Shown here: piece by piece, positions 2,321-50,242 of the stretch
Position numbering within the stretch: position 1 is the first letter of the stretch
How the letters are laid out: each line of letters opens with the position of its first letter
Assembly: GCA_016699615.1 (NCBI GenBank)
Contig: CP064984.1
Coordinates: 1,806,185 to 1,870,184, forward strand
Source: Sphingobacteriales bacterium
Lineage (GTDB): Bacteria > Bacteroidota > Bacteroidia > Chitinophagales > JADIYW01
Direction of reading: 5' to 3'
DNA length: 64,000 nucleotides
Program-made: the position numbers and the translations under genes
The notes under the pieces: generated by a model
Told to the model about the DNA's origin: nothing
What the model saw: only the letters and a program-made list of their open reading frames with translations
Database searches by the model: none

Positions 2321-3082
2321 TTACCAATCTTTGGCAACTTTGGTTTTTTTGCCATTGCCTTGCTGTTGTTGCAGTTTTTGTTGTGTTTTGCCTTCTTCAT
2401 TTTCCAAGGCTTCCAGCAGACGTTGTGCCTCTTCGTTGCTCATTTTTCCTTGTTGCTCTTGTTCTTTTTGTTGCTGAGCTTTATTTTTGTCTTGAGCTGA
2501 TTGCTGATTTTGTTGCTGATTCTGCTTGTTTTCTTGTTGTTTTTTCTGGTCTTGCTTTTGTTGTTGCTGTTGGTCGTCTTTCAGTTTTGCCATTGCCATC
2601 ATCAAATTATATTTGGTGTCTTTGTCAGATGGATTTATTTTTAGTGCTTCTTTGTAGGCTTGTACACTTTTTTCAAACTGAGATTGTTTGTAGAATGTAT
2701 TACCAAGATTGTGATATGCTTTTGATTTTACATCTAAGTTTTTAGTTTGTTTGCTTATTGCATCAAAATAAGATGCAGCTTTTTCATATTCGCCTAGTTG
2801 GTACATTGCATTTGCTTGGTTGAAAATTGCTTTCTCATTATTTGGCTCTTTGCTCAATGCTGCTGTGTACTTATCTGTTGCTTGGTTGTATTTTTGTTGG
2901 TCATAAGATTTATTGCCACTTCTTATTAATGAATTGGTACTTTGTGCAGCTGAGTCTTTAGGTCTTAAAAAAATTACTAATAATATTCCAATTTTAATGA
3001 TAGTCTTTAATACAAAAACTACGATTAAAAGTGTTTTATTCTTTTTGGCAAATGTTCTTATTTTGTCAAAATACTTCCTCAT
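2321..3082 (-). CDS. batC: BatC-like TPR protein with Q/K-rich C-terminal tail
   Basis: TPR-like segments are present (AMYQLGEYEKAASYFD, NLGNTFYKQSQFEKSVQAYKEAL) plus a glutamine-rich tail. It overlaps the upstream VWA gene by 4 nt. Gene order matches the Bacteroides Bat operon. Confidence 0.6.
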   Translation of the reverse strand: MRKYFDKIRTFAKKNKTLLIVVFVLKTIIKIGILLVIFLRPKDSAAQSTNSLIRSGNKSYDQQKYNQATDKYTAALSKEPNNEKAIFNQANAMYQLGEYEKAASYFDAISKQTKNLDVKSKAYHNLGNTFYKQSQFEKSVQAYKEALKINPSDKDTKYNLMMAMAKLKDDQQQQQKQDQKKQQENKQNQQQNQQSAQDKNKAQQQKEQEQQGKMSNEEAQRLLEALENEEGKTQQKLQQQQGNGKKTKVAKDW

Positions 3083-5084: not shown

Positions 5085-5097
5085 TTTAATCTTGTTG

Positions 5098-6081: not shown

Positions 6082-6086
6082 GCGAT

Positions 6087-6950
6087 TTATCTTTTTTTAA
6101 AGAAATTCATTAATGCACTAACATATGGTTGATTGCTTTTAAGTATTAGTTTATCTGCGCCAGCTCTTCCAAAACTTTGCTCAAAATATTTTTGTAAATC
6201 TTGATAAGATTGTTGGTATGTGGCTGCCCAAGATTTGTCATTACTATCTATCCAAATATGTGTTTGTTTTTCTACATCATAGATTTGAATTAGACCAACA
6301 TTTGGTATTTGCTCATCTAGTGTGTCATTTATTTTTATTCCAATCACATCATGTTTTTTTGCCAAATGCGATAGTTGTTCAAAATATCCATCATTTAAGA
6401 AATCTGAAAGCACAAATACTATTGCCTTTTTCTTCATCTTATTATTAAATCCTTCTAATGTATTTGCAATGTCTGTGGTTTTGTTTTCAGAAGAATATTG
6501 CAATAATTCTCTAATAATTCTTAGTATTTGTTGCTTGCCTTTTTTTGGTGGAAGAAATAATTCTGTTTTATTGGTGAAGAATGCTAATCCAACCTTATCA
6601 TTGTTATTGATAGCCGAAAATGCGATAATGGCACACAATTCAGCAATCATCTCTCTTTTTGTTTGATTGAGTGTGCCTATAAAAGTTGATTGACTTACGT
6701 CAACCAAAAGCATTACAGTAAGTTCTCTTTCTTCTTCAAATACTTTCACATATGGTGTTTGGAATCTTGCAGTCACATTCCAATCAATATTTCTAATATC
6801 ATCACCATATTGATATTCTCTAACTTCTGAAAAAGACATTCCTCTGCCTTTGAATTTACTATGATACTCACCAGAAAAAATATGATTGCTCAAACCTTTT
6901 GTTTTGATTTCAATTTTTCTAACTTTCTTTAGTAATTCAGATGTTTCCAA
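6087..6950 (-). CDS. DUF58 family protein (MoxR partner)
   Basis: The motif REYQYGDDIRNIDWNVTAR is typical of DUF58. It lies immediately downstream of the MoxR ATPase gene. Confidence 0.7.
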   Translation of the reverse strand: METSELLKKVRKIEIKTKGLSNHIFSGEYHSKFKGRGMSFSEVREYQYGDDIRNIDWNVTARFQTPYVKVFEEERELTVMLLVDVSQSTFIGTLNQTKREMIAELCAIIAFSAINNNDKVGLAFFTNKTELFLPPKKGKQQILRIIRELLQYSSENKTTDIANTLEGFNNKMKKKAIVFVLSDFLNDGYFEQLSHLAKKHDVIGIKINDTLDEQIPNVGLIQIYDVEKQTHIWIDSNDKSWAATYQQSYQDLQKYFEQSFGRAGADKLILKSNQPYVSALMNFFKKR

Positions 6951-7012
6951 AAAATAGAATTTTTAGTTATTAATTTTATAGATGTTCCTTGTTTTGTTGT
7001 TGTAAAACACTG

Positions 7013-8026
7013 TTAAGGCACTTCTACTTTGTTGATAATTGTTTGTATAATATCTTCTTGGAAAATATTTTCAGCTTCTGCTTCATAGGTAATGCCTATT
7101 CTGTGTCTTAGTACATCAGTGCAAATAGCACGAATGTCTTCTGGAATTACATAACCACGTTTTTTTATGAATGCGTATGCTTTTGCAGCCATAGCCATAC
7201 TTATACTTGCACGTGGCGAAGCACCATAGCTGATAAGATTTTGTAGATTGTCTAATTTATAGTTTGCCGGATTTCTTGTTGCAAAAACAATATCTAAAAT
7301 ATATTTTTCTATTTTTTCGTCCATGTACACAGCACGCACAGTTTCTCTAGCTCTTAGTATTTCTTCTGGTTTTATTACTGGCATTATCTTAGGTGAGCTG
7401 CCTTGTACATTTTGTCTAATGATTTGTCTTTCTTCCTCAAATTCTGGATAGCCAATTTTTACTTTTAGCATAAATCTGTCTACTTGTGCTTCAGGCAAAT
7501 TGTAAGTACCTTCTTGTTCAATTGGATTTTGTGTTGCCATTACTAAAAATGGTTCTTCAAGTTTATATACATGATCGCCAATTGTTACAGATTTTTCTTG
7601 CATTGCTTGCAGTAAAGCACTTTGTACTTTTGCTGGTGCTCTATTGATTTCGTCAGCTAAGATGAAGTTTGAAAAAATTGGGCCTTTTCTTACTTCAAAA
7701 TTTCCTTTTGCTTGGTTGTAAATCATGGTGCCTAAAATGTCTGCTGGCAACAAATCTGGTGTAAATTGTATACGACTAAATTGTGTGCTAATTGCATCAG
7801 ACAATGATTTTATAGCTAAGGTTTTTGCAAGTCCAGGTACGCCTTCTAGCAAAATATGCCCTTGTGTTAGCAATCCAATCAGTAATCTTTCTATCATATA
7901 TTTTTGTCCTATGATAGATTTGGATACTTCAGAATTTAGCAAATCAAGGAAAATGCTGTCTTGCTGAATTTTTTCATTTAATGCTTTAATGTCGATAGAT
8001 TCCATAATATATATTGAGAAACACAA
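7013..8026 (-). CDS. MoxR-family AAA+ ATPase
   Basis: Walker A is GVPGLAKT and Walker B is ILADEINRA. The size is about 330 aa. The true start may be the internal MESIDIK methionine. Confidence 0.85.
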   Translation of the reverse strand: MCFSIYIMESIDIKALNEKIQQDSIFLDLLNSEVSKSIIGQKYMIERLLIGLLTQGHILLEGVPGLAKTLAIKSLSDAISTQFSRIQFTPDLLPADILGTMIYNQAKGNFEVRKGPIFSNFILADEINRAPAKVQSALLQAMQEKSVTIGDHVYKLEEPFLVMATQNPIEQEGTYNLPEAQVDRFMLKVKIGYPEFEEERQIIRQNVQGSSPKIMPVIKPEEILRARETVRAVYMDEKIEKYILDIVFATRNPANYKLDNLQNLISYGASPRASISMAMAAKAYAFIKKRGYVIPEDIRAICTDVLRHRIGITYEAEAENIFQEDIIQTIINKVEVP

Positions 8027-8105
8027 AAATAAAATTGTATGTTGTATATCTGTCTTAGTTTATAGTTAAAAAAAGTTAGCTAATTATGTTATATATATTG
8101 AAATA

Positions 8106-8136
8106 ATAAAAAAAGTTGGCTACTAGGAACCAACTT
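8106..8136 (-). terminator. Rho-independent terminator after trxA
   Basis: On the minus strand the sequence reads AAGTTGG-ttcctagtag-CCAACTT followed by a T-run. It lies just downstream of the trxA stop. Confidence 0.6.
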
Positions 8137-8160
8137 TATTCTAAATATTTACATTGAAAA

Positions 8161-8481
8161 TTAAGCTATTAAGCTATCTAATTTCTTTTTTAGGTCTGAT
8201 TTTGATGCTAAACCAACATGTTTGTCTACTAACTCACCACCTTTAAAAAATAATAAAGTTGGGATACTCATGATGCCATATTGAGCTGCAACATCTCTGT
8301 TGTCATCCACGTTCAATTTTCCTATGGTTGCCTTTCCATCATATTCTGTTGATAATTCTTCGATTACTGGTCCAATTAGTTTACATGGTCCACACCATTC
8401 AGCCCAAAAATCTACCAATGCTACACCACTATTTTCTATAATTGATGCGTTAAAGTTCTCGTTTGTTAATTCTTTTGCCAT
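8161..8481 (-). CDS. trxA: Thioredoxin
   Basis: The WCGPCK active site is present. Size is 106 aa. Confidence 0.9.
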   Translation of the reverse strand: MAKELTNENFNASIIENSGVALVDFWAEWCGPCKLIGPVIEELSTEYDGKATIGKLNVDDNRDVAAQYGIMSIPTLLFFKGGELVDKHVGLASKSDLKKKLDSLIA

Positions 8482-8540
8482 AACTTAGTATTTTATATTT
8501 TTAAACAAATTCTATCAAATAAAGTTCCAAAGTTAAGAAA

Positions 8541-8831
8541 TTAGTTAATAATTACTTCTTCAATTATTTTTTCGCCCATTTTGTCATTGATTATCTGACA
8601 TATTTTCTCTCTTGCCATAAATAACTCTTGTTTTATGACTGCTGAGTCAATTTGTACATATAATTTTCTGTTGCTTAAAACAATTCTTTTGGTGTGTTTG
8701 GCTATGATGCCTTGCATTTGTTCGTACCAAATTTTTTTCACTTTTATCTCATTGAGCTTGCTTCCAATTCTCATCTCTTGGATCATGTCATCCAAAATAT
8801 CTTTCAATGTGCTAAAATTTCCTGTTTTCAA
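8541..8831 (-). CDS. DUF721-like small protein downstream of recF
   Basis: A 96-aa ORF lies 4 nt after recF, the usual position of DUF721 proteins. The call rests on position and size. Confidence 0.45.
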   Translation of the reverse strand: MKTGNFSTLKDILDDMIQEMRIGSKLNEIKVKKIWYEQMQGIIAKHTKRIVLSNRKLYVQIDSAVIKQELFMAREKICQIINDKMGEKIIEEVIIN

Positions 8832-8835
8832 TTTG

Positions 8836-9933
8836 TTATAGTACTATATGTTTGTAATCATTTATTTTCAGTTGCTCTAAGATACTCAATATTCTGTTCG
8901 CATCAGTGTAGGTAATAAATATTTGTCCAAAATTATCTTGATAAACCAAGCTTAATAATGATTTTATTCTTTCCATATCTAATTTGTCAAAGATATCATC
9001 TAAAAATAGAATTGGTTTTTTTTGTGTTTTTAGCTTAATGTATTCGTATTGTGCAAGTTTTGTTGCAAGCACAATGGTTTTTTGCTGTCCTTGCGAAGCA
9101 ATTTTTTTAGCAGGATAATCGTTTAGATTGAATGTAATATCATCAGTATGAATGCCATATAATGTTTTCTGAGCATTTATCTCTTCTTGTTTCTTTCCAA
9201 TTAAAAATGCTTTAATATCTTGATTGATAAACTTTGATTCATATTGTATAAACACATTTTCTTCACCATCAAAAATATTTTTATGGTATTGCTTAAAAAT
9301 GGTATTAAATTGTTCTAAAAAATGACTTCTATTTTCAAAAATATAAGTATTGAGTGTAATAAGTTGTTGATTATAAATATCTAATAAAGCTTCGTCAATA
9401 CGTGTTTGCGTTTGTAATAATTTTAATAATGAGTTCTTTTGTTTTATAATTCTTTGGTATTCAGTTGATTTTGTAAGATGTGCTGGATTACTCAAAGAAA
9501 GTGTTGCATCTATTAATTTACGTCTTATTTCTGCAGTGCCTAATATTATTTCTTGGTCGTTTGGCTCAATAAAAATAATTGGATACCTACTTGCAATTTC
9601 TGTTTGTCTATCAATCTGAATGTCATTTAATGAAATTTGCTTTTTTTGATCTTTTAGATTATTGATTTTAATTCTATCAATTTTTTCATCTATATTAATA
9701 TATGTATTTAGCTGGATAGCCTGATGTGAAAAATGATAAACCAACAAATCTGATGAGCTAAAATTACTTTTTAAAAAACAAGAATAATAGATGGCATCTA
9801 GTAAATTAGTCTTTCCAACACCATTTTTCCCAGTAATGATATTTAGTTTCTGATGCAAGTCAAAAGCACATTGGTGGTACTGTTTGAAATTCTCAATTAC
9901 TATTTTAGAAATATGTTGTGTGAAGGAGAGCAT
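8836..9933 (-). CDS. recF: DNA replication and repair protein RecF
   Basis: The Walker A motif is GKNGVGKTNLLDAIYY. An ABC-like signature (SQGQQKT) and Walker B (LFLDDIFDKLD) are also present. Confidence 0.9.
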   Translation of the reverse strand: MLSFTQHISKIVIENFKQYHQCAFDLHQKLNIITGKNGVGKTNLLDAIYYSCFLKSNFSSSDLLVYHFSHQAIQLNTYINIDEKIDRIKINNLKDQKKQISLNDIQIDRQTEIASRYPIIFIEPNDQEIILGTAEIRRKLIDATLSLSNPAHLTKSTEYQRIIKQKNSLLKLLQTQTRIDEALLDIYNQQLITLNTYIFENRSHFLEQFNTIFKQYHKNIFDGEENVFIQYESKFINQDIKAFLIGKKQEEINAQKTLYGIHTDDITFNLNDYPAKKIASQGQQKTIVLATKLAQYEYIKLKTQKKPILFLDDIFDKLDMERIKSLLSLVYQDNFGQIFITYTDANRILSILEQLKINDYKHIVL

Positions 9934-9986
9934 ATTAAATTTGCGACAAAATAATTAAAAATATATTGGATTTAGTAAATAAATTG

Positions 9987-9994
9987 TACTTTTG
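9987..9994 (+). promoter_or_regulatory. Bacteroidota -7 box (TAnnTTTG) for the TPR/ribH operon
   Basis: TACTTTTG lies 24 nt upstream of the ATG at 10018. A TTG at 9966-9968 sits 18 nt upstream of the box. Confidence 0.4.
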
Positions 9995-10017
9995 CGGTTC
10001 TAAAATGTTATAATACA

Positions 10018-10698
10018 ATGTCTACGCAAAAAAGTCATAAAGAACCTACAGAACAAATCAATGATTTTTTGGATAATCTAAATCATTACTTTGAGCAATA
10101 TAAACATATAATATTAGGAAGTTCAGCTGCAATTGTTATACTATTTGCTGGTGCTTTTATCTATAAAAATTATATTAAAGGACCAAAAGAAGAAAAAGCA
10201 AAAGATGCTATCTATATGGCACAATACTTATTTGCACAAGATTCTTTTGCATTAGCACTAAAAGGTTCTGGCAATGTAAAAGGTTTTGAAAGCATAGTAA
10301 AAGATTTTGGTGGCACAGCTGCAGGAAATTCAGCAAGATTTTATGCAGGCGTTTGTAATTTAAATTTAGGAAAATTTGCAGAAGCTGAGAAATATCTTGA
10401 AGATTTTAAAACAGATGATCCAATATTAAGCGCAAGAAAATATGGTTGCTTAGGTGATGCTTATGCAGAGCAAAAACAAATGGAAAAAGCAATTGACAAT
10501 TATAAAAAAGCAATTGAAATTGATAATGAATTAACAGCACCTACATATATGTATCGTGCAGCATTAGCATTAGATATTACAGGAAAAAAAGACGAAGCAC
10601 TTGCTTTGTACCAAAAATTGAATAAAGATTATCCAAATTCTCAAGAAGGACAAGCAGCTGAATTAGCTATTGGAAAATTAGAGCAAGAAGTAAAATAA
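10018..10698 (+). CDS. TPR-repeat membrane-anchored protein (YfgM-like)
   Basis: It has one N-terminal TM helix followed by TPR-like repeats (LGDAYAEQKQMEKAIDNYKKAIEI). Confidence 0.6.
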   Translation: MSTQKSHKEPTEQINDFLDNLNHYFEQYKHIILGSSAAIVILFAGAFIYKNYIKGPKEEKAKDAIYMAQYLFAQDSFALALKGSGNVKGFESIVKDFGGTAAGNSARFYAGVCNLNLGKFAEAEKYLEDFKTDDPILSARKYGCLGDAYAEQKQMEKAIDNYKKAIEIDNELTAPTYMYRAALALDITGKKDEALALYQKLNKDYPNSQEGQAAELAIGKLEQEVK

Positions 10699-10726
10699 TC
10701 TTAATAGTAGTATTAAATAGTGTTTA

Positions 10727-11197
10727 ATGGCATCAGCATTACAAAATTTATCCAACTATGATGTAGAAAAAGTTCCTTCAGGAAAAGGAAAAAAAGTTGG
10801 CATTGCTGTGTCTGAGTGGAACAAACAAATTACTTTCAGCTTATTAAAAGCATGTGTAGAAACTTTATTGGAATTTGAAGTTGATATACAAGATATTGAT
10901 ATTCGTTTTGTGCCTGGAACATTTGAGTTGCCTTATGCAGCAAAACAGTTGGCAACAAAAGGACAAGATGCTGTAATATGTATAGGTTGCGTTATCAAAG
11001 GAGAAACTGACCATGATGTATATATTAATAGCTCAGTAGCACATGCACTACAACAATTAAATTTGCAATATAATATGCCATTTATTTTTGGCGTACTTAC
11101 ACCAAATACAGAAGTTCAAGCATTAGACAGAGCTGGTGGCAAACATGGAAATAAAGGAACAGAAGCTGCCATCACAGCATTAAAAATGATGAATTAA
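10727..11197 (+). CDS. ribH: 6,7-dimethyl-8-ribityllumazine synthase
   Basis: Size is 156 aa. Motifs VPGTFELP and NKGTEAA are typical of RibH. Confidence 0.85.
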   Translation: MASALQNLSNYDVEKVPSGKGKKVGIAVSEWNKQITFSLLKACVETLLEFEVDIQDIDIRFVPGTFELPYAAKQLATKGQDAVICIGCVIKGETDHDVYINSSVAHALQQLNLQYNMPFIFGVLTPNTEVQALDRAGGKHGNKGTEAAITALKMMN

Positions 11198-11211
11198 AAT
11201 AGGTTTCTTAA

Positions 11212-12564
11212 GGTAGTATTTCACGAACTGTGTAAGTTGAAAATTTATTCTAAAAATTTTGACCACCTCAAAATGGTCATAATATTTTTAGAAATAATAT
11301 TTTCAAACCAATAAATTTACATAGTTATGATTGACAAAGAAAAATTATTAAACGACAAGGAATTTTACAAATCCTTTAAGAATGGAACAGAACTAAGTTC
11401 ATTCTTTAAAACAATGCACAAACGAGCTGTAGAACATATGCTCGAAGCAGAATTAGATGAGCATTTGGATAATGAGAAACATCAAACAAGCACATCTGGA
11501 AATTACCGCAACGGTCATGGAACAAAGAAGATAAAAACTTCTTTTGGAGAAGATATTATCAAAGTTCCTAGAGATAGAGAAGGTAGCTTTGATCCAATTC
11601 TAGTACCCAAACGGCATAATATCATTGATGGATTAGAAAATATAATTATCTCTTTTTATGCCAAAGGAATGAGTGTTAGTGATATTGAAGAACAAATTAA
11701 GGAAATGTATGATTTTGACATTTCAACATCTACCATATCACGTATAACCAATGCTATATCGTCAGAAGTAGTGAATTGGCAAAACCGACCATTGGATAGT
11801 TTATATCTTATTGTTTGGATGGATGGTATTGTATTTAAAGTCAGAGAGAACTCCAAAGTAATCAATAAAACCATCTATTTAGCAGTAGGATTGAACCGAG
11901 AAGGTAAGAAAGAAGTGCTTGGTATGTGGCTGGGTAAGAGTGAGAGTAGTAGCTTTTGGATGAGTGTATTGACAGACCTAAAAGCTCGTGGTGTAGATGA
12001 TATCTTAATTACAGCCACAGATAATCTTAATGGATTTACGCAAACTATACGCAGTGTTTTCCCACAGTCACAAACCCAAATATGTGTGGTGCATCAGATT
12101 AGAAATGCTTGTAAATATGTTGTTTGGAAAGATAGAAAGGAGTTTACTGCCGATATGAAGCATATTTATACAGCACCCAATAAACAAGCTGCACAGCAAG
12201 CACTAAATGATTTTGCCCAGAAATGGGAAAGTAAATATGCCTATGCTATCAAATCATGGAAAGATAACTGGGATGAATTAACTGTATTTTTTGATTTTCC
12301 TTTAGAAATCCGTAAAATCATTTATACCACGAATTTAATTGAAAACCTGAATGGGAAAATCAGAAAATATACCAATAATAAGATGTCCTTTCCAACAGAT
12401 GATGCAGTATTAAAATCTGTATTTTTAGCCCTAAGAGAAGCAACGAAAAAGTGGTCAATGCCAATTCAAAACTGGGGACTTATTTTAAACCAATTTATCA
12501 TTATATTTGAACACAGAATTAAAATCTAAACTCTTTCAATTTACACACTTTGTGAGATAGTGTC
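11212..12564 (+). mobile_element. IS256-family insertion sequence, apparently intact (1353 bp)
   Basis: It has imperfect terminal inverted repeats, GGTAGTATTTCACGAACTGTGTAAGTTGAAAA versus the reverse complement of the right end GACACTATCTCACAAAGTGTGTAAATTGAAAG (24/32 matches). It is flanked by the 8-bp direct repeat TTTCTTAA at 11204-11211 and 12565-12572. It contains a single 400-aa transposase ORF. Confidence 0.8.
11327..12529 (+). CDS. IS256-family (mutator-type) transposase
   Basis: Size is 400 aa. The N-terminus (..LDEHL..RNGHG.K..) and the segments [10 protein letters not shown] and [14 protein letters not shown] are typical of IS256 transposases. Confidence 0.85.
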
Positions 12565-12642
12565 TTTCTTAATTCATAAAAAATAGTGCTTATACACTTA
12601 ATCTCAAATAGACTAAGTGTATAAGGCTTAAATAAATAATAA

Positions 12643-14115
12643 TTAGTATCCAAAAGCATAATATTGAATGCCATTGCTGTTTTCGTATCTACCTTGCAAT
12701 AACACACCACCACCTTTGCTTTCTTTTATAATTTGTTCAAAATCATCTTTGCTCTTAATGTATTTATTGTTGATAGCAAACACAATAAAACCTTCCTTCA
12801 AATTAGTATTTTGTTTTACAATACCATCAGTAACTTTATTAATTATGACACCACCACCAATGCCTAACTTCTTAGCTTGCAATGAAGTTAATTCAGTTAT
12901 TTCAATACCTAAGTCATTCAAAATATTTCCACTAGATTTCTCTACATCACTTTTTGACAATAATGATGTTTTATTGTCTTTAGATTTTAATACAACATCT
13001 TTTTGTAATGTTTCACCTTTTCTTATAAAATCTACAACAATTTTGTCTCCAGGTCTATATCTTGCTACATGTTCAGTAAGGTCTGCAGTGTTTTTAATTT
13101 CTAAATTCTCAATTTTAGTAATTACATCACCACTCTTCAATCCAGCATCTTCTGCGGCACTTCCTTTTACAATATCTGTGATGTACGCACCTTTAATTTG
13201 TTTTAAATTCAAATCTTTTGCTAGTTCATCATCTACTTCTCTAATATTTACACCCAAAAATCCACGCTGAACAATGCCAAAATCTAAGATATCTTTAACT
13301 ACTTTTTTTGCAAGATTTGATGGAATTGCAAAAGAATATCCAGCATAACTTCCAGTTGGCGTAGCAATGGCTGAATTAATTCCTATTAAATTTCCACTCA
13401 AATCAACTAATGCACCACCGCTATTTCCTGGATTTACAGCAGCATCAGTTTGAATAAAAGATTCTATGGCTAAATTGCCAGCTTTTTCTCTTAAAATATT
13501 GATGTTACGTGCCTTTGCGCTCACAATACCTGCTGTAACTGTTGATGCTAAATTGAATGGATTACCAACAGCTAATACCCATTGTCCAACTTCAACATTA
13601 TCTGAGTTTGCAAAAGATAGAAAACTTAAATTGTTTGCTTCAATTTTTATCACTGCCAAATCTGTAGATGGGTCAGTACCAATTAGCCTCGCAGTAAATG
13701 TTCTGTTGTCATCTAAGTTTACAGTTATCTTATCAGCATTCTCAATTACGTGATTGTTGGTTACAATATATCCATCGTTTGAGATAATTACACCAGAGCC
13801 AGCGCCTTGTTGTAATTGGTCAGGCATTTGTCCTTGGTCAAATGGCATTCCAAAAAATTGCCAAAATGGATCCATTTGTTGTTGGTTCTTTCTACTAACC
13901 TTCACTTCTGTGTTGATGTGAACTACCGCAGGCGTACTTATTTTTGCTGCCTGTACAAAAGCATCTTGTGGGCCATTAATACTAGCAAATTTAAAATTAC
14001 CGTTTTGGTTGTTTTCTCTGATTATAGTTGTCTTTCCAAGAAACTTGTTGTTAATAGCTAATGTCAATATAGAAACTATTAATGCGATTAAAAAAAATGG
14101 GATATACTTTTTCAT
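12643..14115 (-). CDS. htrA: HtrA/DegP/DegQ-family periplasmic serine protease with two PDZ domains
   Basis: It has a signal anchor, a catalytic GNSGGAL motif, TNNHV and TDLAVIK motifs, and C-terminal PDZ-like repeats. Confidence 0.85.
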   Translation of the reverse strand: MKKYIPFFLIALIVSILTLAINNKFLGKTTIIRENNQNGNFKFASINGPQDAFVQAAKISTPAVVHINTEVKVSRKNQQQMDPFWQFFGMPFDQGQMPDQLQQGAGSGVIISNDGYIVTNNHVIENADKITVNLDDNRTFTARLIGTDPSTDLAVIKIEANNLSFLSFANSDNVEVGQWVLAVGNPFNLASTVTAGIVSAKARNINILREKAGNLAIESFIQTDAAVNPGNSGGALVDLSGNLIGINSAIATPTGSYAGYSFAIPSNLAKKVVKDILDFGIVQRGFLGVNIREVDDELAKDLNLKQIKGAYITDIVKGSAAEDAGLKSGDVITKIENLEIKNTADLTEHVARYRPGDKIVVDFIRKGETLQKDVVLKSKDNKTSLLSKSDVEKSSGNILNDLGIEITELTSLQAKKLGIGGGVIINKVTDGIVKQNTNLKEGFIVFAINNKYIKSKDDFEQIIKESKGGGVLLQGRYENSNGIQYYAFGY

Positions 14116-14263
14116 ATCAAAAATTTACTTTGTTATATAATAGAATACAAAATAAATATAGTTAAGTTCTATATAGATATTAAAAAGTGTAAAATGCGGG
14201 TTAAAAAAAGTTAATCGGCTAGTTGTATAATTTTAATTATTTTTTTTAGTTACTTTTGATTCA

Positions 14264-15043
14264 ATGTATTTTAAATTTTATAAATATCAAGGTACTGGAA
14301 ACGACTTTGTATTAATTGATAATAGGAATAAGCTTTTTCCAAAAGATGATGTGAAGCTAGTTGCACAACTATGCGATAGAAAATTTGGAATAGGCGCAGA
14401 TGGATTGATGTTGCTTGAGCATGCTGATGATTACGCATTCCGAATGGTGTATTATAATGCAGATGGCAAAGAAGGTAGTATGTGTGGCAATGGTGGAAGA
14501 TGTATTGCAAAATTTTCTTTAGATATTGGTGTAGTGCAAGAGCAAAATGCCAAATTTATTGCTATTGATGGCGAACACGATTTTGAATATAAAAACAATC
14601 TAATAAAACTTAAAATGATTGATGTTCAAAAGATAGATAGTTATAATGGTGATTTTGTATTAAATACTGGTTCGCCACATTATGTAAAATTTGTAAATAC
14701 AGTAGAGTTGGATGATTTTGTAGATGTAGCAAAAGCTATTAGATACAATAATGATTTTAAAGAAAAAGGAATCAATGTCAATTTTATTTCTGATGATGGC
14801 AATACTATAAAAATTAGAACTTATGAAAGAGGCGTAGAAGACGAAACACTATCCTGTGGAACAGGAAATGTGGCTGCAGCTTTGTGTATTGCACAACAAA
14901 AAAATATCAATGCAGGCTCCGTTGCTTTAGAAACAAGAGGTGGAACTTTAAATGTTTATTTTTCAAAGATAGATAATCAGTACACAGATATCTGGTTGGA
15001 AGGAAAGGCAACAAAAGTATTTGAAGGAGAAATAGAAATATAA
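14264..15043 (+). CDS. dapF: Diaminopimelate epimerase
   Basis: The N-terminus is YQGTGNDFVLID. Both catalytic cysteine contexts are present (SMCGNGGRC and LSCGTG). Confidence 0.85.
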   Translation: MYFKFYKYQGTGNDFVLIDNRNKLFPKDDVKLVAQLCDRKFGIGADGLMLLEHADDYAFRMVYYNADGKEGSMCGNGGRCIAKFSLDIGVVQEQNAKFIAIDGEHDFEYKNNLIKLKMIDVQKIDSYNGDFVLNTGSPHYVKFVNTVELDDFVDVAKAIRYNNDFKEKGINVNFISDDGNTIKIRTYERGVEDETLSCGTGNVAAALCIAQQKNINAGSVALETRGGTLNVYFSKIDNQYTDIWLEGKATKVFEGEIEI

Positions 15044-15046
15044 TTC

Positions 15047-15994
15047 ATGTTTGAATATTATAACATTACTACCAATACAGTAGAAGTAGTGGCAAGCTTA
15101 GAGCAATCAAATTGGGTAAACTTAGTTGCACCATTCAATTTTGAAATTTTAGAGCAATTTGCTATAGAACAGAAAATTCCATTTTCATTCTTTACAGATT
15201 GTATTGATATGTATGAGAAATCTAGATATGAAGAAGATGAAAGCTGTAAATTAATCATCATTAATACACCAATAGAGAACAATGATATAGACATGGAAGA
15301 TGAAGCAGAATATGTAACATTGCCAGTTGGTATTATAAAAAAAGATGATTTAATAATTACAATTTGTGCCGTAAAAAATCCAATGCTCAATTTGTGCACC
15401 ACACAAAGTTCAGTATTGGTAAAAGACAATATTTTAGATAATTTAATTCTCAATTTGTTTGATAGAAATGTGTATTACTATTTATTCTACCTAAGAGAAA
15501 TTAATAAAAAAATATCTGCCATAGAAAAAGATTTAAAATTTTCAAGTAGCAATATTGGTTTGAATAAACTACTTAAAATTCAAAAGGCTCTTATCTATTT
15601 TGTAAATGACTTAAGAGCAAATGAGTTGGTTCTTGTTAAGTTGCGTCGAAATAATTTCTTTCATTTGGATAATTCTAAAATAAAATATGAAGTGCAAGAT
15701 ATTATGGTTGAATACAGCCAAGCCATAGAAATGTCAAATGTGTATTCTAATATTTTAGGAAATATGATGAGTGCGTTCGGTTCAATAATTTCTAATAACT
15801 TGGGCAATGTAGTCAATAGGCTAACAAGTGTTACCATCATACTAATGGTACCAACATTAATAGCTGGAATCTATGGTATGAATATTCCATTGCCATTTCA
15901 AGAACGTCCACATTCGTTTACGATTATAATGCTATTGACGATAGCAATTACATTAGCTTTCATTCTCGTATTCAGACGAAAAAAATGGTTGTAA
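15047..15994 (+). CDS. CorA-like magnesium/cobalt transporter
   Basis: A GMN motif (GIYGMNI) is followed by the final TM helix. Size is 315 aa. Confidence 0.75.
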   Translation: MFEYYNITTNTVEVVASLEQSNWVNLVAPFNFEILEQFAIEQKIPFSFFTDCIDMYEKSRYEEDESCKLIIINTPIENNDIDMEDEAEYVTLPVGIIKKDDLIITICAVKNPMLNLCTTQSSVLVKDNILDNLILNLFDRNVYYYLFYLREINKKISAIEKDLKFSSSNIGLNKLLKIQKALIYFVNDLRANELVLVKLRRNNFFHLDNSKIKYEVQDIMVEYSQAIEMSNVYSNILGNMMSAFGSIISNNLGNVVNRLTSVTIILMVPTLIAGIYGMNIPLPFQERPHSFTIIMLLTIAITLAFILVFRRKKWL

Positions 15995-16053
15995 ATTTCT
16001 TTATAGCATTCTAGAATATTAAAGATTATTTATCATAATATATTATATAAGAA

Positions 16054-40623: not shown

Positions 40624-40842
40624 ATGATGTTTCAATCAAATATTGTTTCTGAAATTAGCGAATACGTTGATAAATTGCCAAAGCAAGAACAGATAAAATT
40701 ATTGTCAAGATTGAAAAAGCAAATTCAACCTAAGGTTAAAAAAGTTTCAAATAAACAAATATTAGAATTATCTAAAGAAATTAATAAGAGTATTTTTAAA
40801 AACCACACAAAAAAACGTTTGGATGCTCTTGATATCCGATAG
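40624..40842 (+). CDS. Putative antitoxin of a PIN toxin-antitoxin pair
   Basis: A 72-aa ORF overlaps the PIN gene by 20 nt. A TATATTTG -7 box lies at 40612-40619. Confidence 0.5.
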   Translation: MMFQSNIVSEISEYVDKLPKQEQIKLLSRLKKQIQPKVKKVSNKQILELSKEINKSIFKNHTKKRLDALDIR

Positions 40843-41260
40843 TAATATAATTATTAGTGCTATTGTTTCGCCAAATGGTACTATTTCAAATATCATCCAT
40901 TCTAAAAGAAAATTCAAAATTATAGCACCTGAATTTCTGAAAGTAGAAATCAATAGGCACAAAGAAAAGATTTTAAAATTAACAGGATATTCAGTTAATG
41001 AATATGAATTAATTTATAAAGAATTAATTGCAAATATCCAATTTGTAGATACAAATGGTATTCCTAAATATTATACTCAAAAAGCATTTGATTTGGTAAA
41101 AGATATAGATTTGGATGACTTAGAATTTGTAGAATTGGCATTATACAAAAGATGCTTATTATGGACAGTTGATAGAAGTCTAGTAAATGGTCTGAAGAAA
41201 AAAGGATTTACAAAAATTATCACTACATCAGAGTTAAGAAAATTTCTCTATAAAAAGTAA
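40823..41260 (+). CDS. PIN-domain ribonuclease toxin
   Basis: The N-terminus LISDSNIIISAI carries the first acidic residue. DIDLDDLEFVELA and LWTVDRSL match PIN acidic positions. Confidence 0.65.
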   Translation: MLLISDSNIIISAIVSPNGTISNIIHSKRKFKIIAPEFLKVEINRHKEKILKLTGYSVNEYELIYKELIANIQFVDTNGIPKYYTQKAFDLVKDIDLDDLEFVELALYKRCLLWTVDRSLVNGLKKKGFTKIITTSELRKFLYKK

Positions 41261-41391
41261 TACAATAAGCTAACAAGAAGAGGTATAATAGCAAAAAATA
41301 GTTGGTAAAATGGCTTAAAGCGTCAATTTTTATTGGTGTTTAGGGTATGGTTATTGAAAATGATTTCAATTTAATTTATTTTACTTAAAAA

Positions 41392-42356
41392 ATGGCTAAA
41401 AAAAGTGCTGGTCGTGTGGTTCTAGCAATGTAATAAAATGGGGTTTTCAAAAAGGTAAACAACGTTTTAAATGTAAAGATTGTGGTCTATTATTTATCAG
41501 ACAAAATAAATCTGTTAGTTTATCTAACAAGTTTATTTAGTTTAAAAAATGGATTTTACAAAGACAAACAATTACTGATTTAGCAATAGAAAGTAATTAT
41601 AGTGTTCGGAGTTTAAAAAGCTTATTTGATACTTATCTGCAAAAAGCACCAACGCATAAATTCTATCCATCTGAACAACTTAATTTGCTTATTGATGGCA
41701 CTTATTTTTCTAATAATATTTGCTTAATAATTTACCGAGATGATACGATAAAACTCACACAACTGTATAGGATTACTGATGGTGAATATTTTGAAGAAAT
41801 TAAAGAAGATTTACAAAATATCTTATCGCTTGGTATTCGTATAGATAGTATTACATGTGACGGTCACAAATCGATACTAAAAGCAATCAAGGTAGTTTGT
41901 AAGCAGGTTTATTTACAACGCTGTACAGTTCATATACAGAGAGAATGCAGAGCTTGGCTAACTACTCAACCTAAACATATTGCAGGTGTAGAGCTACTAG
42001 CTATTGTGCATCAATTACACACCATTATTACACATGAGCAATCTCATGATTGGATAAAACAAGTGCTAGACTGGCATTTAAAATACAGCTCATTTATTAA
42101 TGAAAAATCATACAGCATTACCACAAATAGATATTGGTATAAACATAAAATGGTTCGTAAAGCATTTGTTCATATTAGAAACGCAATTCCTAACTTATTT
42201 ACGTATCTATTTAATCCAAGAATACCAAAATCAACTAATGGCTTAGAGGCATTCTTCGGGCATCTCAAAAGTCATGTTTTAATGCATCGTGGATTGACCA
42301 AGGAACATAGAACCAATTTCATTAAATGGTATTTATACTTTAAAAATCAGAAATGA
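41392..42356 (+). pseudogene. Degraded DDE transposase with N-terminal zinc ribbon (IS1/IS1595-like)
   Basis: The ATG at 41392 is out of frame with the CWSCGSSNVIKWGFQKGKQRFKCKDCG zinc ribbon. One extra A in the A7 run at 41398-41404 would restore the frame. An in-frame TAG lies at 41538-41540. The catalytic part is in ORF 41685..42356 (LLIDGTYF, ITCDGHKS, STNGLEAFFGHLK). Confidence 0.6.
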
Positions 42357-46312: not shown

Positions 46313-46320
46313 TATATTTG
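46313..46320 (+). promoter_or_regulatory. Candidate -7 box (TATATTTG) for the accessory-cas13b operon
   Basis: It matches TAnnTTTG and lies 22 nt upstream of the ATG at 46342. No convincing -33 TTG was found. Confidence 0.3.
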
Positions 46321-46341: not shown

Positions 46342-46995
46342 ATGGAAAAACTTTCTTTTAAGTATTATACTATTTCTGCGGCAATAGCTATAGTCATTAG
46401 CTCATCTCTTGCTTTCTTAGGATTTAATAATTTAATTGCGCAAATAACTAAAAACTTTTGTTCAGAAGCAAAGCAAATTATTTCATTAATAATGAGTCTC
46501 TTTTCTGTAGCAACAATTGCCTACCTGCTGAACCATTATTGTTTTGGTATAATGCGTTATTTTTTAGGATTACCTGATTTGCGAGGAAACTATACAGGTA
46601 AGCTTGAAAGTAGTTATCATGTAGATGATGATGAAAGCAAACCACATATTACTAAATATGTAAAAATTAGTATTTCACAGAATGTAAATGGTTTTTATGT
46701 CGAAGCATTTTTTTATGAACATGAAGCATCTTTAAAACATAGTTCAGAATCGTATAGTGTTTCGCATGATATTGATAAGAAACCTAATAATGAGTATATT
46801 ATTACTTACAGATACAAAAATAAAGCAGATAAGCTACATGATGACCACGAGAAATATGGCTTAACTGACCACGATGGTATTACTATTTTAACTTTTAATG
46901 CTAAAAATAAAACCTTAAATGGAAAATATTTTAACGATAGCCAAAACCGACCAAGCTATGGAAATTTAAATTTAACTAAAAACAATAAATTATAG
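46342..46995 (+). CDS. Cas13b-associated membrane protein: two N-terminal TM helices plus a ~140-aa beta-strand-rich soluble domain (Cap15 / S-2TMbeta-like architecture)
   Basis: The hydrophobic helices are YTISAAIAIVISSSLAFLGFNNLI and QIISLIMSLFSVATIAYLLNHYCFGIM. These are followed by LRGNYTGKLESSY...VKISISQNVNGFYVEAFFYE...YIITYRYKN...GITILTFNAKNKTLNGKYFN...YGNLNLTK, with alternating patterns typical of beta strands. The stop lies 4 nt before the cas13b ATG on the same strand. Confidence 0.6.
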   Translation: MEKLSFKYYTISAAIAIVISSSLAFLGFNNLIAQITKNFCSEAKQIISLIMSLFSVATIAYLLNHYCFGIMRYFLGLPDLRGNYTGKLESSYHVDDDESKPHITKYVKISISQNVNGFYVEAFFYEHEASLKHSSESYSVSHDIDKKPNNEYIITYRYKNKADKLHDDHEKYGLTDHDGITILTFNAKNKTLNGKYFNDSQNRPSYGNLNLTKNNKL

Positions 46996-46999
46996 AACT

Positions 47000-49900
47000 A
47001 TGGAAACAAATAACAAAAGAGAAAAAAATTATTCTCAACCAACACTAGAGAAAAATGGAGAATTAGCTCTGTTTTATAACTTGGCTTATAATAGAATAAG
47101 CGAATATATTAAACTTCAAGAAAAAAATGCTAAAGATGAAATAAGAGACTATTTTGGTGATGTAGATATAAAACACGAAAAATTTTCTGAAGCTTTATTT
47201 AGTGAAAGTACCTACACCAATTTAAAAATATACTTGTGGAAAGAACAAAAAGGAGGAAAGATAAAATATATAAAACCATGGGAAATAGAGATGATAAATC
47301 ATATGTTGCACCTTTTATGGCGATTAAGAGACTTTCATTCACACTATTGGCATGATAATGCTGGTATTGTAATTTTTAAAGAAGATTTTAGAGCTTTTCT
47401 TATTGAAAAGTTTAATGAAGCATTAACTTCTTATGATGCTAGATATCCTTTTGCTCAAAAATATTACAGAAACCAAGTTCCTATTTTAATTAATGCAGAA
47501 ACAAATAAATTTAATACCGAAGGCATAAACTTTTATTTAAGTTTCTTTTTAACAAAGAGCCAAATGGAATTATTTATGAATAATCGTGAATATCTTAAAA
47601 TGAAAGGCGTAAAGAAAGAATCAAAGAATTCTGAAAATATAAGAGACTTTGATTTTATGAGAAAAGTAAATACACATTTTTGCCTGTCAGATGGGCACCA
47701 ACTAAATATTGCTTCATTGAAAAAAGAAGATACATTATTTGATGAATATTTAGCTGATCAAATCATTAATAACGAAGAAGGAATAACATTAGATAAACAA
47801 AGCCTTGAAATTCTAAAAATAGAAACAGAAAACTACCTTAACTCCATACCTGCATACTTATACAATGAATTAAATATTAACCAAAAGAAATATCAAGTAA
47901 AAAGATTGAACAATAATTATTTAGTGCTTTTATCACAATATATTGCCCTGCATACAACAAAATTTTTAAAAGATAATAACGACAAAAGACAAATAAACTG
48001 GAAAGTTACCGAATATACTATTGAAAAAAGAAATCCTATAAGAAAAGAAGAATTAAGAGAAGTATCTGAAAATGAAAATAAACAAATACCTAACAACTAT
48101 GATAAAATAGTCCATAAATTCAACACCAACTTTGGTATTCAGTTTAAAATTGACGATTCTGATAAATCTAAAGTAATTCAGTATTATAATAAACCATACA
48201 CAGATAAAAATCTTACTGCAATAGAGCTTGTCTTTACTGATAATTCAAGAATACGATTTAATATTGGGCTTAAAGCTCTTACTCATTGGGCAACAATGAT
48301 TATTGGCGGGCATATTGATAAAGTAGTGAATAATCTTTTTGTTTTTGCAGAAGAATACAAACAGCTTGTAGAATATATCAGATACAGAACCAACGATTTT
48401 GATTTAGACAAAACACAATATATAAAAATGTTTTGCCAAAAAGGAGTTTCTGGAGATAAAAACGCTATTGGCTTACAAATTCCACAACCTCTTTTAGATG
48501 CTTATTTTGCAATAAAAAATACAGATTTTGTAGAAATTCCTGTCGATGAACTGAGAACAAAAGTATTACAAAAAGCAAAAAGTAGAATTGGTGTTTTAGA
48601 AGAAATGAAATCTAAAGCAGTTGATACCAATTATCACGATTATAAAATGAGTGCAGAGCTAATTAAAGAGTTTAATAATTTAAAATCAGAATACAATTTA
48701 GATAAAAAAAACTTTGCTAATACTGAGCGATTAGATGAACTAGACACACTTTTAAAAGAAGATAAAAAAATACAAAAGAAGAATACAAAAATTCGTTTCA
48801 GTAAAATGAAAGAACTGCTTTTTGTAATGAAATGGATTTTAGAGAAATCTAAAAAATTTAACGACCCAAAACAAAAGAAAGCAGTATGCAAATACATTTA
48901 TTTATTAGATGACAAAACCTCTGCTGAAAAATTTCTTAAAAATGATAAAATAGAAAAATTAGATTCAGATTTAGCCTTGTATTCTGCTTCTGAATGGCTT
49001 ACAAGACTAGCCACAAAAGAAGAATACCAAACAGATGAAAACCCACAGCTAGTAGAAAGAAAAGCATTACACAATATTTTTTTTACAACAGCTACAAGTT
49101 TTGATGAAGCCTATCTACAAGTAATAGATTTAGCCATTAAAAAATACAATACTTTGCAAGAAACTATTAATAAACACATAGAAACAAACAGTAAAGAAAC
49201 ATCAACAAGCATACCACCATCAAAAGATAAAACAGATGGAAGATTAATGTGGCTATTACAAAGATGTAAAGAACTAGATTTAACTAATAAATCATATACG
49301 CTTTCTGCTAATAGCGATTTTAGAGAAGCTACAAAAAAAGAGGTAGATAGAATAAAAGAATTGGTAATGCCTTATGTTTTTAAATATGATTATATAGATG
49401 AAAATAATTTTAAGGAAGGCTATATTTTTGGATTATCCAACTGGTTTTTTGAAACAATAGATAATTTTAAAGAAAAATTTATAGCCACAAAAAACACTCA
49501 TATAGTTCAATTTGTTGAAGAAAAACGAAAACAATATCAGGAGTATTTCAAGAATAATCAAAATGCACAACCTTATTTGGTATCAAAAGATGCCTTTAGT
49601 AATAGGTTAGAAAAAGAAGATTTTAATAAGGCAAGAACCTTTTATCAAGATGTAGTACACGATGCCTTACTTGCTAAATTAAAAGACAATTATTTTAATT
49701 TACAATCACATAAATTTGATATTAAGCGAACTAGAAGCAAAGATATTAAAATAGAGCATATAATAAATGACATAAAACTACATACTTTTATACCTATAAA
49801 GCTATTGCAAAGAAATAATGGAGTAATCCATAAAAAACACATTATAAAAATGATGGAGCTACTGTATAAAAAAGAAATTCAAAAAGGTAGAGATAATCCA

Positions 49901-50242
49901 AAAACAACTTTCGAATATCAAACCATAGTTCAGCGATTACAAAGTTATTACCAACAAAGTATAAAGTATGTATCAGAAATTTTAAAGAACGAGAAAGAAT
50001 ATGGAGAAAGCCAAGATTGGGCGGCTATACAAAATAAAATAGACCTTATTAACAATCCTATTCCGCAAGAATTTGAGCATAAAAAATTTGAAGTATTTAG
50101 AAGTTATATTGAAAGTAAATATGTAAACGCTTTCGTGGATATTGAAAAACAACTACGAAATAAAATATTTCATTTAGATGTAGCAGAAAAAGGATTTGGA
50201 AATCTATTAAAACTAAAACAACAAAATAATACCAATATATAA
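47000..50242 (+). CDS. cas13b: Cas13b-like type VI-B CRISPR effector (dual-HEPN RNA-guided RNase)
   Basis: Size is 1080 aa. The N-terminal HEPN motif is LWRLRDFHSHYWH (R110..H115, nt 47327-47344). The C-terminal HEPN motif is EKQLRNKIFHLDV (R1053..H1058, nt 50156-50173). The segments INFYLSFFLTKSQMELF and YQDVVHDALLAKL resemble Cas13b blocks recalled from the Bergeyella and Prevotella proteins. It directly precedes a 36-bp-repeat array. Confidence 0.85.
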   Translation: METNNKREKNYSQPTLEKNGELALFYNLAYNRISEYIKLQEKNAKDEIRDYFGDVDIKHEKFSEALFSESTYTNLKIYLWKEQKGGKIKYIKPWEIEMINHMLHLLWRLRDFHSHYWHDNAGIVIFKEDFRAFLIEKFNEALTSYDARYPFAQKYYRNQVPILINAETNKFNTEGINFYLSFFLTKSQMELFMNNREYLKMKGVKKESKNSENIRDFDFMRKVNTHFCLSDGHQLNIASLKKEDTLFDEYLADQIINNEEGITLDKQSLEILKIETENYLNSIPAYLYNELNINQKKYQVKRLNNNYLVLLSQYIALHTTKFLKDNNDKRQINWKVTEYTIEKRNPIRKEELREVSENENKQIPNNYDKIVHKFNTNFGIQFKIDDSDKSKVIQYYNKPYTDKNLTAIELVFTDNSRIRFNIGLKALTHWATMIIGGHIDKVVNNLFVFAEEYKQLVEYIRYRTNDFDLDKTQYIKMFCQKGVSGDKNAIGLQIPQPLLDAYFAIKNTDFVEIPVDELRTKVLQKAKSRIGVLEEMKSKAVDTNYHDYKMSAELIKEFNNLKSEYNLDKKNFANTERLDELDTLLKEDKKIQKKNTKIRFSKMKELLFVMKWILEKSKKFNDPKQKKAVCKYIYLLDDKTSAEKFLKNDKIEKLDSDLALYSASEWLTRLATKEEYQTDENPQLVERKALHNIFFTTATSFDEAYLQVIDLAIKKYNTLQETINKHIETNSKETSTSIPPSKDKTDGRLMWLLQRCKELDLTNKSYTLSANSDFREATKKEVDRIKELVMPYVFKYDYIDENNFKEGYIFGLSNWFFETIDNFKEKFIATKNTHIVQFVEEKRKQYQEYFKNNQNAQPYLVSKDAFSNRLEKEDFNKARTFYQDVVHDALLAKLKDNYFNLQSHKFDIKRTRSKDIKIEHIINDIKLHTFIPIKLLQRNNGVIHKKHIIKMMELLYKKEIQKGRDNPKTTFEYQTIVQRLQSYYQQSIKYVSEILKNEKEYGESQDWAAIQNKIDLINNPIPQEFEHKKFEVFRSYIESKYVNAFVDIEKQLRNKIFHLDVAEKGFGNLLKLKQQNNTNI

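Follow-up and report, generated by a model that had tools for sequence, protein, structure and literature searches.

A Cap15-family membrane protein encoded directly upstream of a divergent Cas13b in a type VI-B CRISPR-Cas locus

The 64,000-nucleotide (nt) stretch of Sphingobacteriales bacterium contig CP064984.1 analysed here (the window) carries, on its forward strand, a gene for a 217-amino-acid (aa) membrane protein, directly followed by a gene for a 1080-aa protein and by a CRISPR array. This work indicated that the 217-aa protein is almost certainly a Cap15-family accessory dedicated to Cas13b, the 1080-aa protein being a divergent Cas13b. By analogy with Cap15, which belongs to the cyclic-oligonucleotide-based antiphage signalling system (CBASS), this accessory would be a membrane-disrupting downstream effector triggered by Cas13b, a reading to which we give a probability of roughly 0.55-0.6. 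It would point to an undescribed route from CRISPR RNA recognition to membrane damage.

Published VI-B accessories comprise Csx27, Csx28, WYL proteins and CorA. The first-pass annotation of this DNA had proposed a third, undescribed class of membrane accessory for Cas13b. No description of a Cas13b/Cap15-family pairing was found in the literature, including the 2025 classification supplements, a prior mention in figure panels (e.g., Extended Data Fig. 3d of PMC12669027) being possible. The word "third" was an undercount, a CorA-like protein with two transmembrane (TM) helices (2TM) being already known in VI-B loci that carry a reverse transcriptase (RT) (PMC11662929).

Family membership and conservation of the accessory

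The 217-aa protein is, by sequence comparison, homologous to Cap15, including its cyclic-nucleotide receptor domain. It matched the Pfam family PF18153 (Cap15_CD_rec) with 50.1 bits, for a gathering score of 31.2, residues 77-213 covering positions 3-122 of the 122 of the profile, and twelve PADLOC models of CBASS 2TM effectors matched it as well, the best one reaching 2.3e-24 along almost the whole protein. When compared with the sequences of the PDB, the 217-aa sequence alone retrieved Cap15 (7n34) at E 7e-4, and a profile built from 11 Cas13b-linked accessories retrieved the same crystal-structure sequence at E 5.2e-12, with the motifs Y-x-Y-x-N, H-x-G, G-x-Y-F-N and R-x-x-Y-G aligned between the two. 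All five of the other Cas13b-linked homologs that were run against PF18153 passed (37.9-50.3 bits), and precomputed PF18153 hits exist for the remaining ones. The likeness to SMODS-associated 2TM beta (S-2TMbeta) effectors, which the first-pass annotation had recognised from layout and a few sequence patterns, is thus real homology. The motifs of the receptor-domain family occupy invariant columns of the alignments (G82-x-Y84-x-G86, Q113, Y156-x-Y158, H177-x-G179, G194-x-Y196-x-N198 and R203-x-S205-x-G207). Two traits distinguish the Cas13b-linked accessories from Cap15: a characteristic L-x-S-S-[YF]-[HK] signature that follows their G-x-Y-x-G motif, and their grouping in a clade of their own with 100% bootstrap support. 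No relative of the accessory was found among the IMG/VR viral contigs, and its nearest plasmid-borne relatives adjoin a gene annotated as "nucleotidyltransferase".

The architecture of the protein was in line with this assignment. Hydropathy analysis (Kyte-Doolittle, 19-residue window) placed the hydrophobic stretches at approximately residues 10-33 and 44-67, and the AlphaFold2 model (7-sequence alignment; predicted local distance difference test, pLDDT, 77.5; predicted template modelling score, pTM, 0.69) displayed long helices at residues 11-35 and 41-75, then eight beta strands within residues 82-214. The alignment was shallow because the word-indexed protein search gave only 6-9 relatives of the accessory. 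Both the two N-terminal TM helices and the beta-rich soluble domain that had been read from the sequence were thus recovered, as was the absence of an R-x4-6-H motif, none being found in the 217-aa protein by a regular-expression search. In such a topology, the N-terminus and the beta domain would share one side of the membrane, presumably the cytoplasmic one. The neighbours of the model in the PDB, determined with Foldseek, were 8-stranded barrels, with no match at E <= 1e-3 and with Cap15 outside the top 50.

The accessory was clearly set apart from Csx27 and Csx28. The PADLOC models for Csx27 (PDLC01605/01604) and Csx28 (PDLC01606/01603) match genuine canonical VI-B accessories at E 1e-42 to 1e-80 (1e-42 to 1e-71 for the Csx27/tm_4 models on genuine Csx27; 2e-72 and 6e-80 for the Csx28/tm_HEPN models on the Csx28 of Segatella buccae ATCC 33574), and none of these models matched the 217-aa protein at E <= 1. 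Clustering of the accessories from about 40 loci by BLASTP yielded three unconnected groups: a Csx28-like one (1 TM, about 178 aa, downstream of cas13b), a Csx27-like one (4 TM, 229-245 aa, upstream of cas13b) and a 2TM-beta one. The claim that the protein fits neither family therefore stands, on the lack of a profile match, the separate BLASTP cluster, two TM helices rather than four and the missing R-x4-6-H motif.

The pairing of the accessory with cas13b was conserved far beyond the window. In 11 distinct loci, a PF18153 gene (209-221 aa) precedes cas13b on the same strand, with spacings between a 4 nt overlap and a 27 nt gap (Table 1), and the flanking genes differ in all 11, leaving cas13b as the only conserved neighbour; the survey for homologs beside other cas13b genes, a check put forward in the first-pass annotation, was thus positive. 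The clade of window-type Cas13b is called here the A1 family, a working label and not a published name. Apart from two CBASS-type loci described below (L008 and L135), every A1-family gene with readable upstream DNA had a PF18153 gene directly upstream on the same strand. A metagenome scan with the narrower family alignment (A5) returned two loci, the broader alignment (A2) being too diverse for such a scan. The pair is followed by an array in the window, L009 and L013, preceded by one in L005 and L007, and enclosed by two in L140, the accessory being located between array and cas13b in L005, L007 and L140.

Selection acts on both genes. In the comparison of L005 with L007, two closely related homologous loci, the ratio of nonsynonymous to synonymous substitution rates (dN/dS) was 0.14 for the accessory and 0.20 for the partner gene, with similar dS values (0.28 vs 0.26), which indicates purifying selection on both. 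Accessory and Cas13b identities correlate across loci (r = 0.87). The accessory diverges faster, as seen between window 46342-50242 and L137 129-4052, where it is 46% identical and Cas13b 70% identical (dN 0.41 vs 0.19).

The accessory was also found to serve two clades of Cas13b. In L003/L004, an accessory 59% identical to that of the window stands 4 nt ahead of a gene fragment which has no BLASTP similarity to the window Cas13b and matches the PADLOC Cas13b model PDLC01469 at 6.6e-39. In L140, an array, a 213-aa PF18153 protein, a 1220-aa Cas13b (4 nt overlap) and a second array follow each other, this Cas13b bearing RNINAH at 113 and RNNAFH at 1129 and matching PADLOC at 1e-59. Between L003 and L001, whose Cas13b partners are of different clades, the accessories share 67% identity; in a small tree of the family they pair at 100% bootstrap, within a clade that unites ten Cas13b-linked accessories and is itself supported at 100%. 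This suggests that the accessory moves between Cas13b clades and that its coupling is generic, not partner-specific.

In relatives of the L140-type Cas13b, other genes occupy the same upstream slot. It holds a PycTM-like membrane protein in L053 (5161-5700, minus strand; Alloprevotella sp. OH1205) and in L104 (7543-7998, minus strand). This protein is 179 aa long and has 3-4 TM segments; its gene shares 4 nt with the beginning of a cas13b whose product is recognised by hidden Markov models (HMMs; PADLOC 4.7e-87), and it is matched by Pfam PycTM (28.4 bits, gathering score 27.2) and by a PADLOC CBASS 2TM effector model (5.8e-16). PycTM being a Pycsar effector, the accessory slot of Cas13b therefore houses a second family of effectors known from cyclic-nucleotide systems. 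Type I restriction-modification (R-M) specificity genes replace the membrane accessory 3-13 nt upstream of L140-type cas13b genes in L040 (5456-6685, minus strand) and L092 (129-1184, plus strand). As a separate observation, the Cas13b of L051 (3901-7362, minus strand) is split into open reading frames (ORFs) of 853 aa and 299 aa, the latter matching PADLOC Cas13b at 3.9e-61; it is probably a frameshifted gene.

The divergent Cas13b and its CRISPR array

The 1080-aa protein is a divergent Cas13b, judging by its fold, its terminal HEPN motifs, the type of its repeats and the HMM hits of its family members. The Cas13b label that it had received in the first-pass annotation is sound as regards fold, motifs and repeats, and has to be qualified in that the protein belongs to a divergent clade missed by standard Cas13b HMMs. 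No match was obtained for it in Pfam, PADLOC or NCBIfam, nor against PDB chain sequences, whether it was used alone or as an 11-member profile. Foldseek analysis of its AlphaFold2 model (pLDDT 67) returned six significant PDB matches, all of them Cas13b, the best being PspCas13b (8wf9, 2.8e-10) and Cas13bt3 (7vti, 3.1e-10), with the next match at E 0.2. Its two HEPN motifs (Table 1) have their counterparts, at equivalent terminal places, in the RN[FY]Y[ST]H and RNxxxH of the canonical Cas13b proteins collected in this analysis. Two of the 11 family members (P0015 and P0017) matched PADLOC Cas13b models, at 5e-12 and 8e-15. From a library of 1.84 billion proteins, the family profile retrieved 1000-1250-aa proteins, 7 of the 8 sampled matching Cas13b HMMs. 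In a local search, proteins of the BzCas13b type were out of reach of the family HMM, and it is hence by fold, motifs, repeats and transitive HMM matches that the protein is assigned to Cas13b. The A1 family is rare, with about a dozen 50%-identity clusters among the 1.84 billion representatives, yet deeply conserved.

The locus is a type VI-B CRISPR-Cas system, as it combines terminal HEPN motifs and a Cas13b fold with 36-nt repeats of the GTTG...ACAAC type and spacers of about 30 nt. The repeat pattern GTTG...TTTTG-RRRGG...ACAAC also retrieved the VI-B arrays of Bergeyella zoohelcum and Segatella buccae, and the window repeat folds into a terminal stem and an inner stem. No further repeat copy was found elsewhere in the window (best match 22/36), and comparison of the array with 50,697 phage records gave chance-level matches only (E >= 0.3).

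AT-rich tandem repeats were observed directly after several arrays, in the window (51271-51700), L009 (12635-12844) and L008 (15548-15883). Those of the window consist of a 94-nt period (x1.9) and of 104-nt copies 125 nt apart, and those of L009 and L008 of 42-nt units (x4-6). In L008 (13200-16100), the array downstream of cas13b has a 66-nt period, and repeats of 100-300 nt, present in five to seven copies, break it up. A 138-aa ORF after the cas13b of L013 was rejected as an artefact, the array having been translated as a protein.

Cyclase content, proposed trigger and competing explanations

Among the best 25 (down to E 5.6e-9) of the 70 PADLOC families matched by the 51 ORFs of the window, there was neither a cyclase model nor a cas1/cas2-like match; for comparison, a real cGAS/DncV-like nucleotidyltransferase (CD-NTase) of related loci reaches 1.6e-112 in PADLOC. 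In line with this, the Pfam tables of the L009-L014 flanks contained no SMODS or cyclase match, and no cyclase was present in up to 8-10 kb of flank in nine distinct A1-family loci and in one full-length locus of the other clade with a 2TM gene. As judged by gene content, mCpol was lacking too, cas13b being the only conserved neighbour and the upstream genes being housekeeping ones, a result obtained with no dedicated mCpol profile search. On this gene content, the locus is neither a CBASS, for want of a cyclase, nor a Panoptes system, for want of mCpol, and, as it has neither Csx27 nor Csx28, it falls outside VI-B1 and VI-B2.

CBASS genes were found inside other Cas13b loci. In L008 (Tenacibaculum, 4917-16014) and L135 (metagenomic, 5223-12281), genes for an E2-like protein, a CD-NTase and a Cap15-like 2TM protein precede an A1-family cas13b, with gaps before the latter of 12 nt in L008 and 19 nt in L135. 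TIR and peptidase-C14 genes lie upstream of this string in both loci, and Cas13b-type repeats precede all of these genes: L135 has a mini-array of five repeats there, L008 isolated copies. L036 (Flavobacteriaceae Hp32, 1-4606 of an 8-kb fragment) displays the same operon order, again with a five-repeat mini-array upstream; Cas13b is expected beyond the fragment, and a single ORF of 393 aa combines TIR with the Cap15 receptor domain. In the small tree, the 2TM proteins of L008, L135 and L036 form their own clade, the nearest neighbour of the Cas13b-linked clade. This fits a derivation of the accessory from a CBASS operon lodged beside cas13b, followed by loss of the cyclase, a scenario whose polarity is undecided with the present sampling.

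Recognition of a target RNA by crRNA-guided Cas13b switches on its HEPN RNase, and Cap15 binds a cyclic nucleotide in its beta barrel, multimerises and disrupts the inner membrane. In the scheme that we propose, Cas13b guided by its crRNA would recognise a phage transcript, which would turn on the HEPN RNase. A signal would then reach the beta domain, most likely a small RNA cleavage product with 5'-OH or 2',3'-cyclic phosphate ends, and this is the least certain step. The accessory would finally multimerise in the inner membrane and breach the barrier as Cap15 does, the infected cell being arrested or killed.

That the trigger is a cleavage-product messenger, read by a CBASS-derived receptor domain with no need for a cyclase, is put forward tentatively. 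A small-nucleotide trigger is favoured here because the receptor motifs are conserved, because the accessory goes with Cas13b proteins too different for a shared interface, and because 5'-OH CCA is a second messenger for another Cas13 accessory (10.64898/2026.08.25.746378). Cas13 cleavage leaves 5'-OH and 2',3'-cyclic phosphate ends, and 5'-OH CCA, a collateral product that derives from tRNA tails, was shown in a 2026 preprint to act on an accessory kinase in the manner of a linear second messenger (10.64898/2026.08.25.746378). Under the cleavage-product reading, L008, L135 and L036 would be an evolutionary intermediate from which the cyclase was lost. A logic inverted as in Panoptes is unlikely, the locus containing nothing that could restrain the toxin.

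Several points weigh against the proposed scheme. The known ligands of the family are cyclic di- and trinucleotides made by dedicated cyclases, not linear products (PMC12657218, PMC12657230), and other membrane accessories of VI-B systems, Csx27 and CorA (PMC11662929), lower Cas13b interference. Moreover, the ancestral logic may need a cyclase, given that an A1-family Cas13b stands behind a full CBASS operon in L008 and L135 (with L036 syntenic), and a cyclase may be located elsewhere in the genome in the case of metagenomic contigs.

The same effector role could also be exerted through direct contact, in which target-bound Cas13b would dock on the cytoplasmic beta domain and release it without the help of any nucleotide ligand. 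For Csx28, such contact was put forward as one of two possibilities (bioRxiv 10.1101/2021.11.02.466367), and both the tight gene coupling (4 nt overlap to 27 nt gap) and the co-variation of accessory and Cas13b identities (r = 0.87) are what it would lead one to expect. The existence of 67%-identical accessories serving two Cas13b clades without detectable BLASTP similarity is, however, hard to square with a co-evolved interface, and the retention of the receptor-domain motifs common with Cap15 speaks against it too, which makes this trigger doubtful.

In a further explanation, the accessory would still respond to a cyclic nucleotide supplied in trans, by a CD-NTase or another cyclase encoded elsewhere in the genome, the Cas13b locus simply carrying or sharing a CBASS-type effector. 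It draws on L008 and L135, with their Cap15-like 2TM, CD-NTase and E2 genes before an A1-family cas13b, on the same operon order in L036, on the position of the CBASS 2TM proteins of these loci as nearest outgroup to the Cas13b-linked clade in the small tree, and on the "nucleotidyltransferase" adjoining the nearest plasmid-borne relatives. We consider it unlikely, however, in view of the nine A1-family loci and the full-length locus of the other clade that have no cyclase in up to 8-10 kb of flank; constant linkage to cas13b without a cyclase, maintained down to 25% Cas13b identity, would indeed be unexpected for simple sharing.

Also unlikely is a role of the accessory as a brake or modulator of Cas13b, or another membrane role such as nucleic-acid uptake, in place of that of a killing effector. 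Csx27 represses Cas13b interference, CorA lowers interference in VI-B/RT loci (PMC11662929), and both sit in accessory positions beside cas13b. By contrast, all characterised S-2TMbeta members (Cap15, OptE/2TMbeta) are membrane-disrupting toxins (PMC12657218, PMC12657230), and the motifs of this family are conserved in the accessory, so that a non-killing function appears quite improbable. Chance clustering in a defence island with no functional link, although defence genes do cluster generally and some cas13b genes are immediately preceded by a type I R-M specificity gene, is strongly disfavoured by the 11 distinct loci with different neighbours and gaps of -4 to 27 nt, by the presence of the accessory inside array-flanked loci and by the matched dS of both genes.

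Relation to known systems and surroundings of the locus

Compared with Cap15 of CBASS, the accessory has the same two TM helices and beta receptor domain, a homologous sequence and an expected output of multimerising membrane disruption, but no CD-NTase is found in the window, nor in the available DNA of nine full-length and two fragmentary loci with the pair, its partners being Cas13b and a CRISPR array. Panoptes offers another case of an S-2TMbeta protein (OptE/2TMbeta) outside classical CBASS, with an ancestral link to CRISPR components (PMC12657218, PMC12657230). OptE is kept inactive by a cyclic dinucleotide made constitutively by the product of the adjacent mCpol gene and disrupts the membrane once this inhibitory ligand is removed (PMC12657218, PMC12657230), whereas the loci described here have no such gene.

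Csx28 is likely a functional analogue of the accessory, as it is also a small membrane protein encoded beside cas13b and depolarises the membrane upon target recognition by Cas13b. The two have, however, no sequence relationship, Csx28 consisting of 1 TM helix and a helical HEPN-like domain, being encoded downstream of cas13b and forming an octameric pore; this pore depends on Cas13b that has been activated by its target, the candidate triggers being cleavage products and direct contact (bioRxiv 10.1101/2021.11.02.466367). Csx27 shares with the accessory its position upstream of cas13b, on the same strand and with a small gap, but is likewise unrelated in sequence, has four TM segments and no soluble beta domain, and is reported to repress interference. 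The CorA-like 2TM protein of VI-B/RT-Cas1 loci is also a membrane accessory borrowed from a nucleotide-signalling CRISPR context (PMC11662929), namely type III-B, where CorA responds to SAM-AMP (PMC11662929); it differs in fold and family, has its gene downstream of cas13b and reportedly lowers interference (PMC11662929). Finally, the CASK system (Cas13, kinase Csx33 and Csx34) provides the signalling logic proposed for the window locus, with an accessory triggered by the collateral product 5'-OH CCA, but its output is phosphorylation and transcription, not membrane damage, and its sensor is unrelated.

For the signalling from Cas13b to membrane accessories, the authors of the Csx28 work left cleavage products or direct contact as options (bioRxiv 10.1101/2021.11.02.466367). 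The accessory described here has a sensor domain from a family known to bind small nucleotides and an output, membrane disruption, that is easily measured; the question of the trigger can therefore be tested with a 140-residue domain and a Cas13b digest. On a broader scale, VI-B systems recruit accessories from cyclic-nucleotide immune effectors, Cap15-like here, PycTM-like in L053/L104 and CorA in the published VI-B/RT loci, and CBASS and Cas13b can be physically interleaved within one locus. For tool builders, the pair offers a candidate compact RNA-triggered membrane switch, and a Cas13b clade missed by current annotation profiles is now defined.

Table 1. Features of the type VI-B locus in the window, and loci elsewhere with the same gene pair.
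Feature or locus	Position in window	Strand	Details
Candidate Bacteroidota -7 box TATATTTG	46313..46320	+	21 nt upstream of start codon; found by eye, weak
Cap15-family S-2TMbeta gene, accessory of the Cas13b locus	46342..46995	+	217 aa; ATG start; TAG 46993-46995
Two TM helices (predicted)	46369..46542	+	approximately residues 10-33 and 44-67, connected by some 10 residues; hydropathy and AlphaFold2
Cap15-type receptor domain	46570..46980	+	residues 77-213, 8 predicted beta strands; Pfam match and AlphaFold2
Divergent cas13b	47000..50242	+	1080 aa; ATG at 47000
HEPN1 motif R110-D-F-H-S-H115	47327..47344	+	R110, D111, S114 and H115 invariant in 11 family members
HEPN2 motif R1053-N-K-I-F-H1058	50156..50173	+	R1053 and H1058 invariant; N1054 at least 90% conserved
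CRISPR array	50313..51270	+	15 identical 36-nt repeats (GTTGTGACACACCACATTTTGAAAGGTATTCACAAC), 14 spacers of 29-30 nt
Degenerate repeat-like copy CTATTTTCAGTTCACATTTTATAGAGTAAACACAAC	51359..51394	+	88 nt past last repeat
L137/L138			Cas13b 70% identical to that of the window; gap 6 nt
L005/L006			Cas13b 55% identical; gap 22 nt
L007			Cas13b 55% identical; gap 27 nt
L009/L010 (a Flavobacterium metagenome-assembled genome)			Cas13b 27% identical; gap 14 nt
L011			Cas13b 25% identical; gap 3 nt
L012			Cas13b 28% identical; gap 1 nt
L013/L014			Cas13b 28% identical; gap 3 nt
L001			contig end, 4 nt past accessory stop, encodes MSTRNDKNQKDYSQPTP, the A1 N-terminus

The layout of the locus (Table 1) was in line with that given in the first-pass annotation. 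The ORF coordinates confirmed that 4 nt separate the TAG of the 217-aa gene from the ATG of the 1080-aa ORF on the same strand, and the two genes are probably co-transcribed. The octamer listed upstream of the accessory, TATATTTG, fits TAnnTTTG, the consensus of the Bacteroidota -7 promoter box. A scan for sigma-70 promoters and terminators was uninformative for this AT-rich, Bacteroidota-like DNA, promoters of the TAnnTTTG type being outside its scope.

Some features of the neighbouring DNA may be mentioned. Just upstream of the locus region, window 40624-42356 contains an overlapping pair of ORFs (72 aa and 145 aa) with a toxin-antitoxin-like layout, together with a 223-aa transposase-like fragment. 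Downstream, three overlapping ORFs (218, 162 and 201 aa) at 51742-53323 on the plus strand, with a dinucleotide-binding motif of the GAGPAG type, resemble a single oxidoreductase gene with frameshifts, which could be a pseudogene or an assembly error. Two adjacent ORFs (140 aa and 58 aa) at 53687-54294 on the minus strand resemble a broken membrane-protein gene, and these could likewise reflect a pseudogene or an assembly error.

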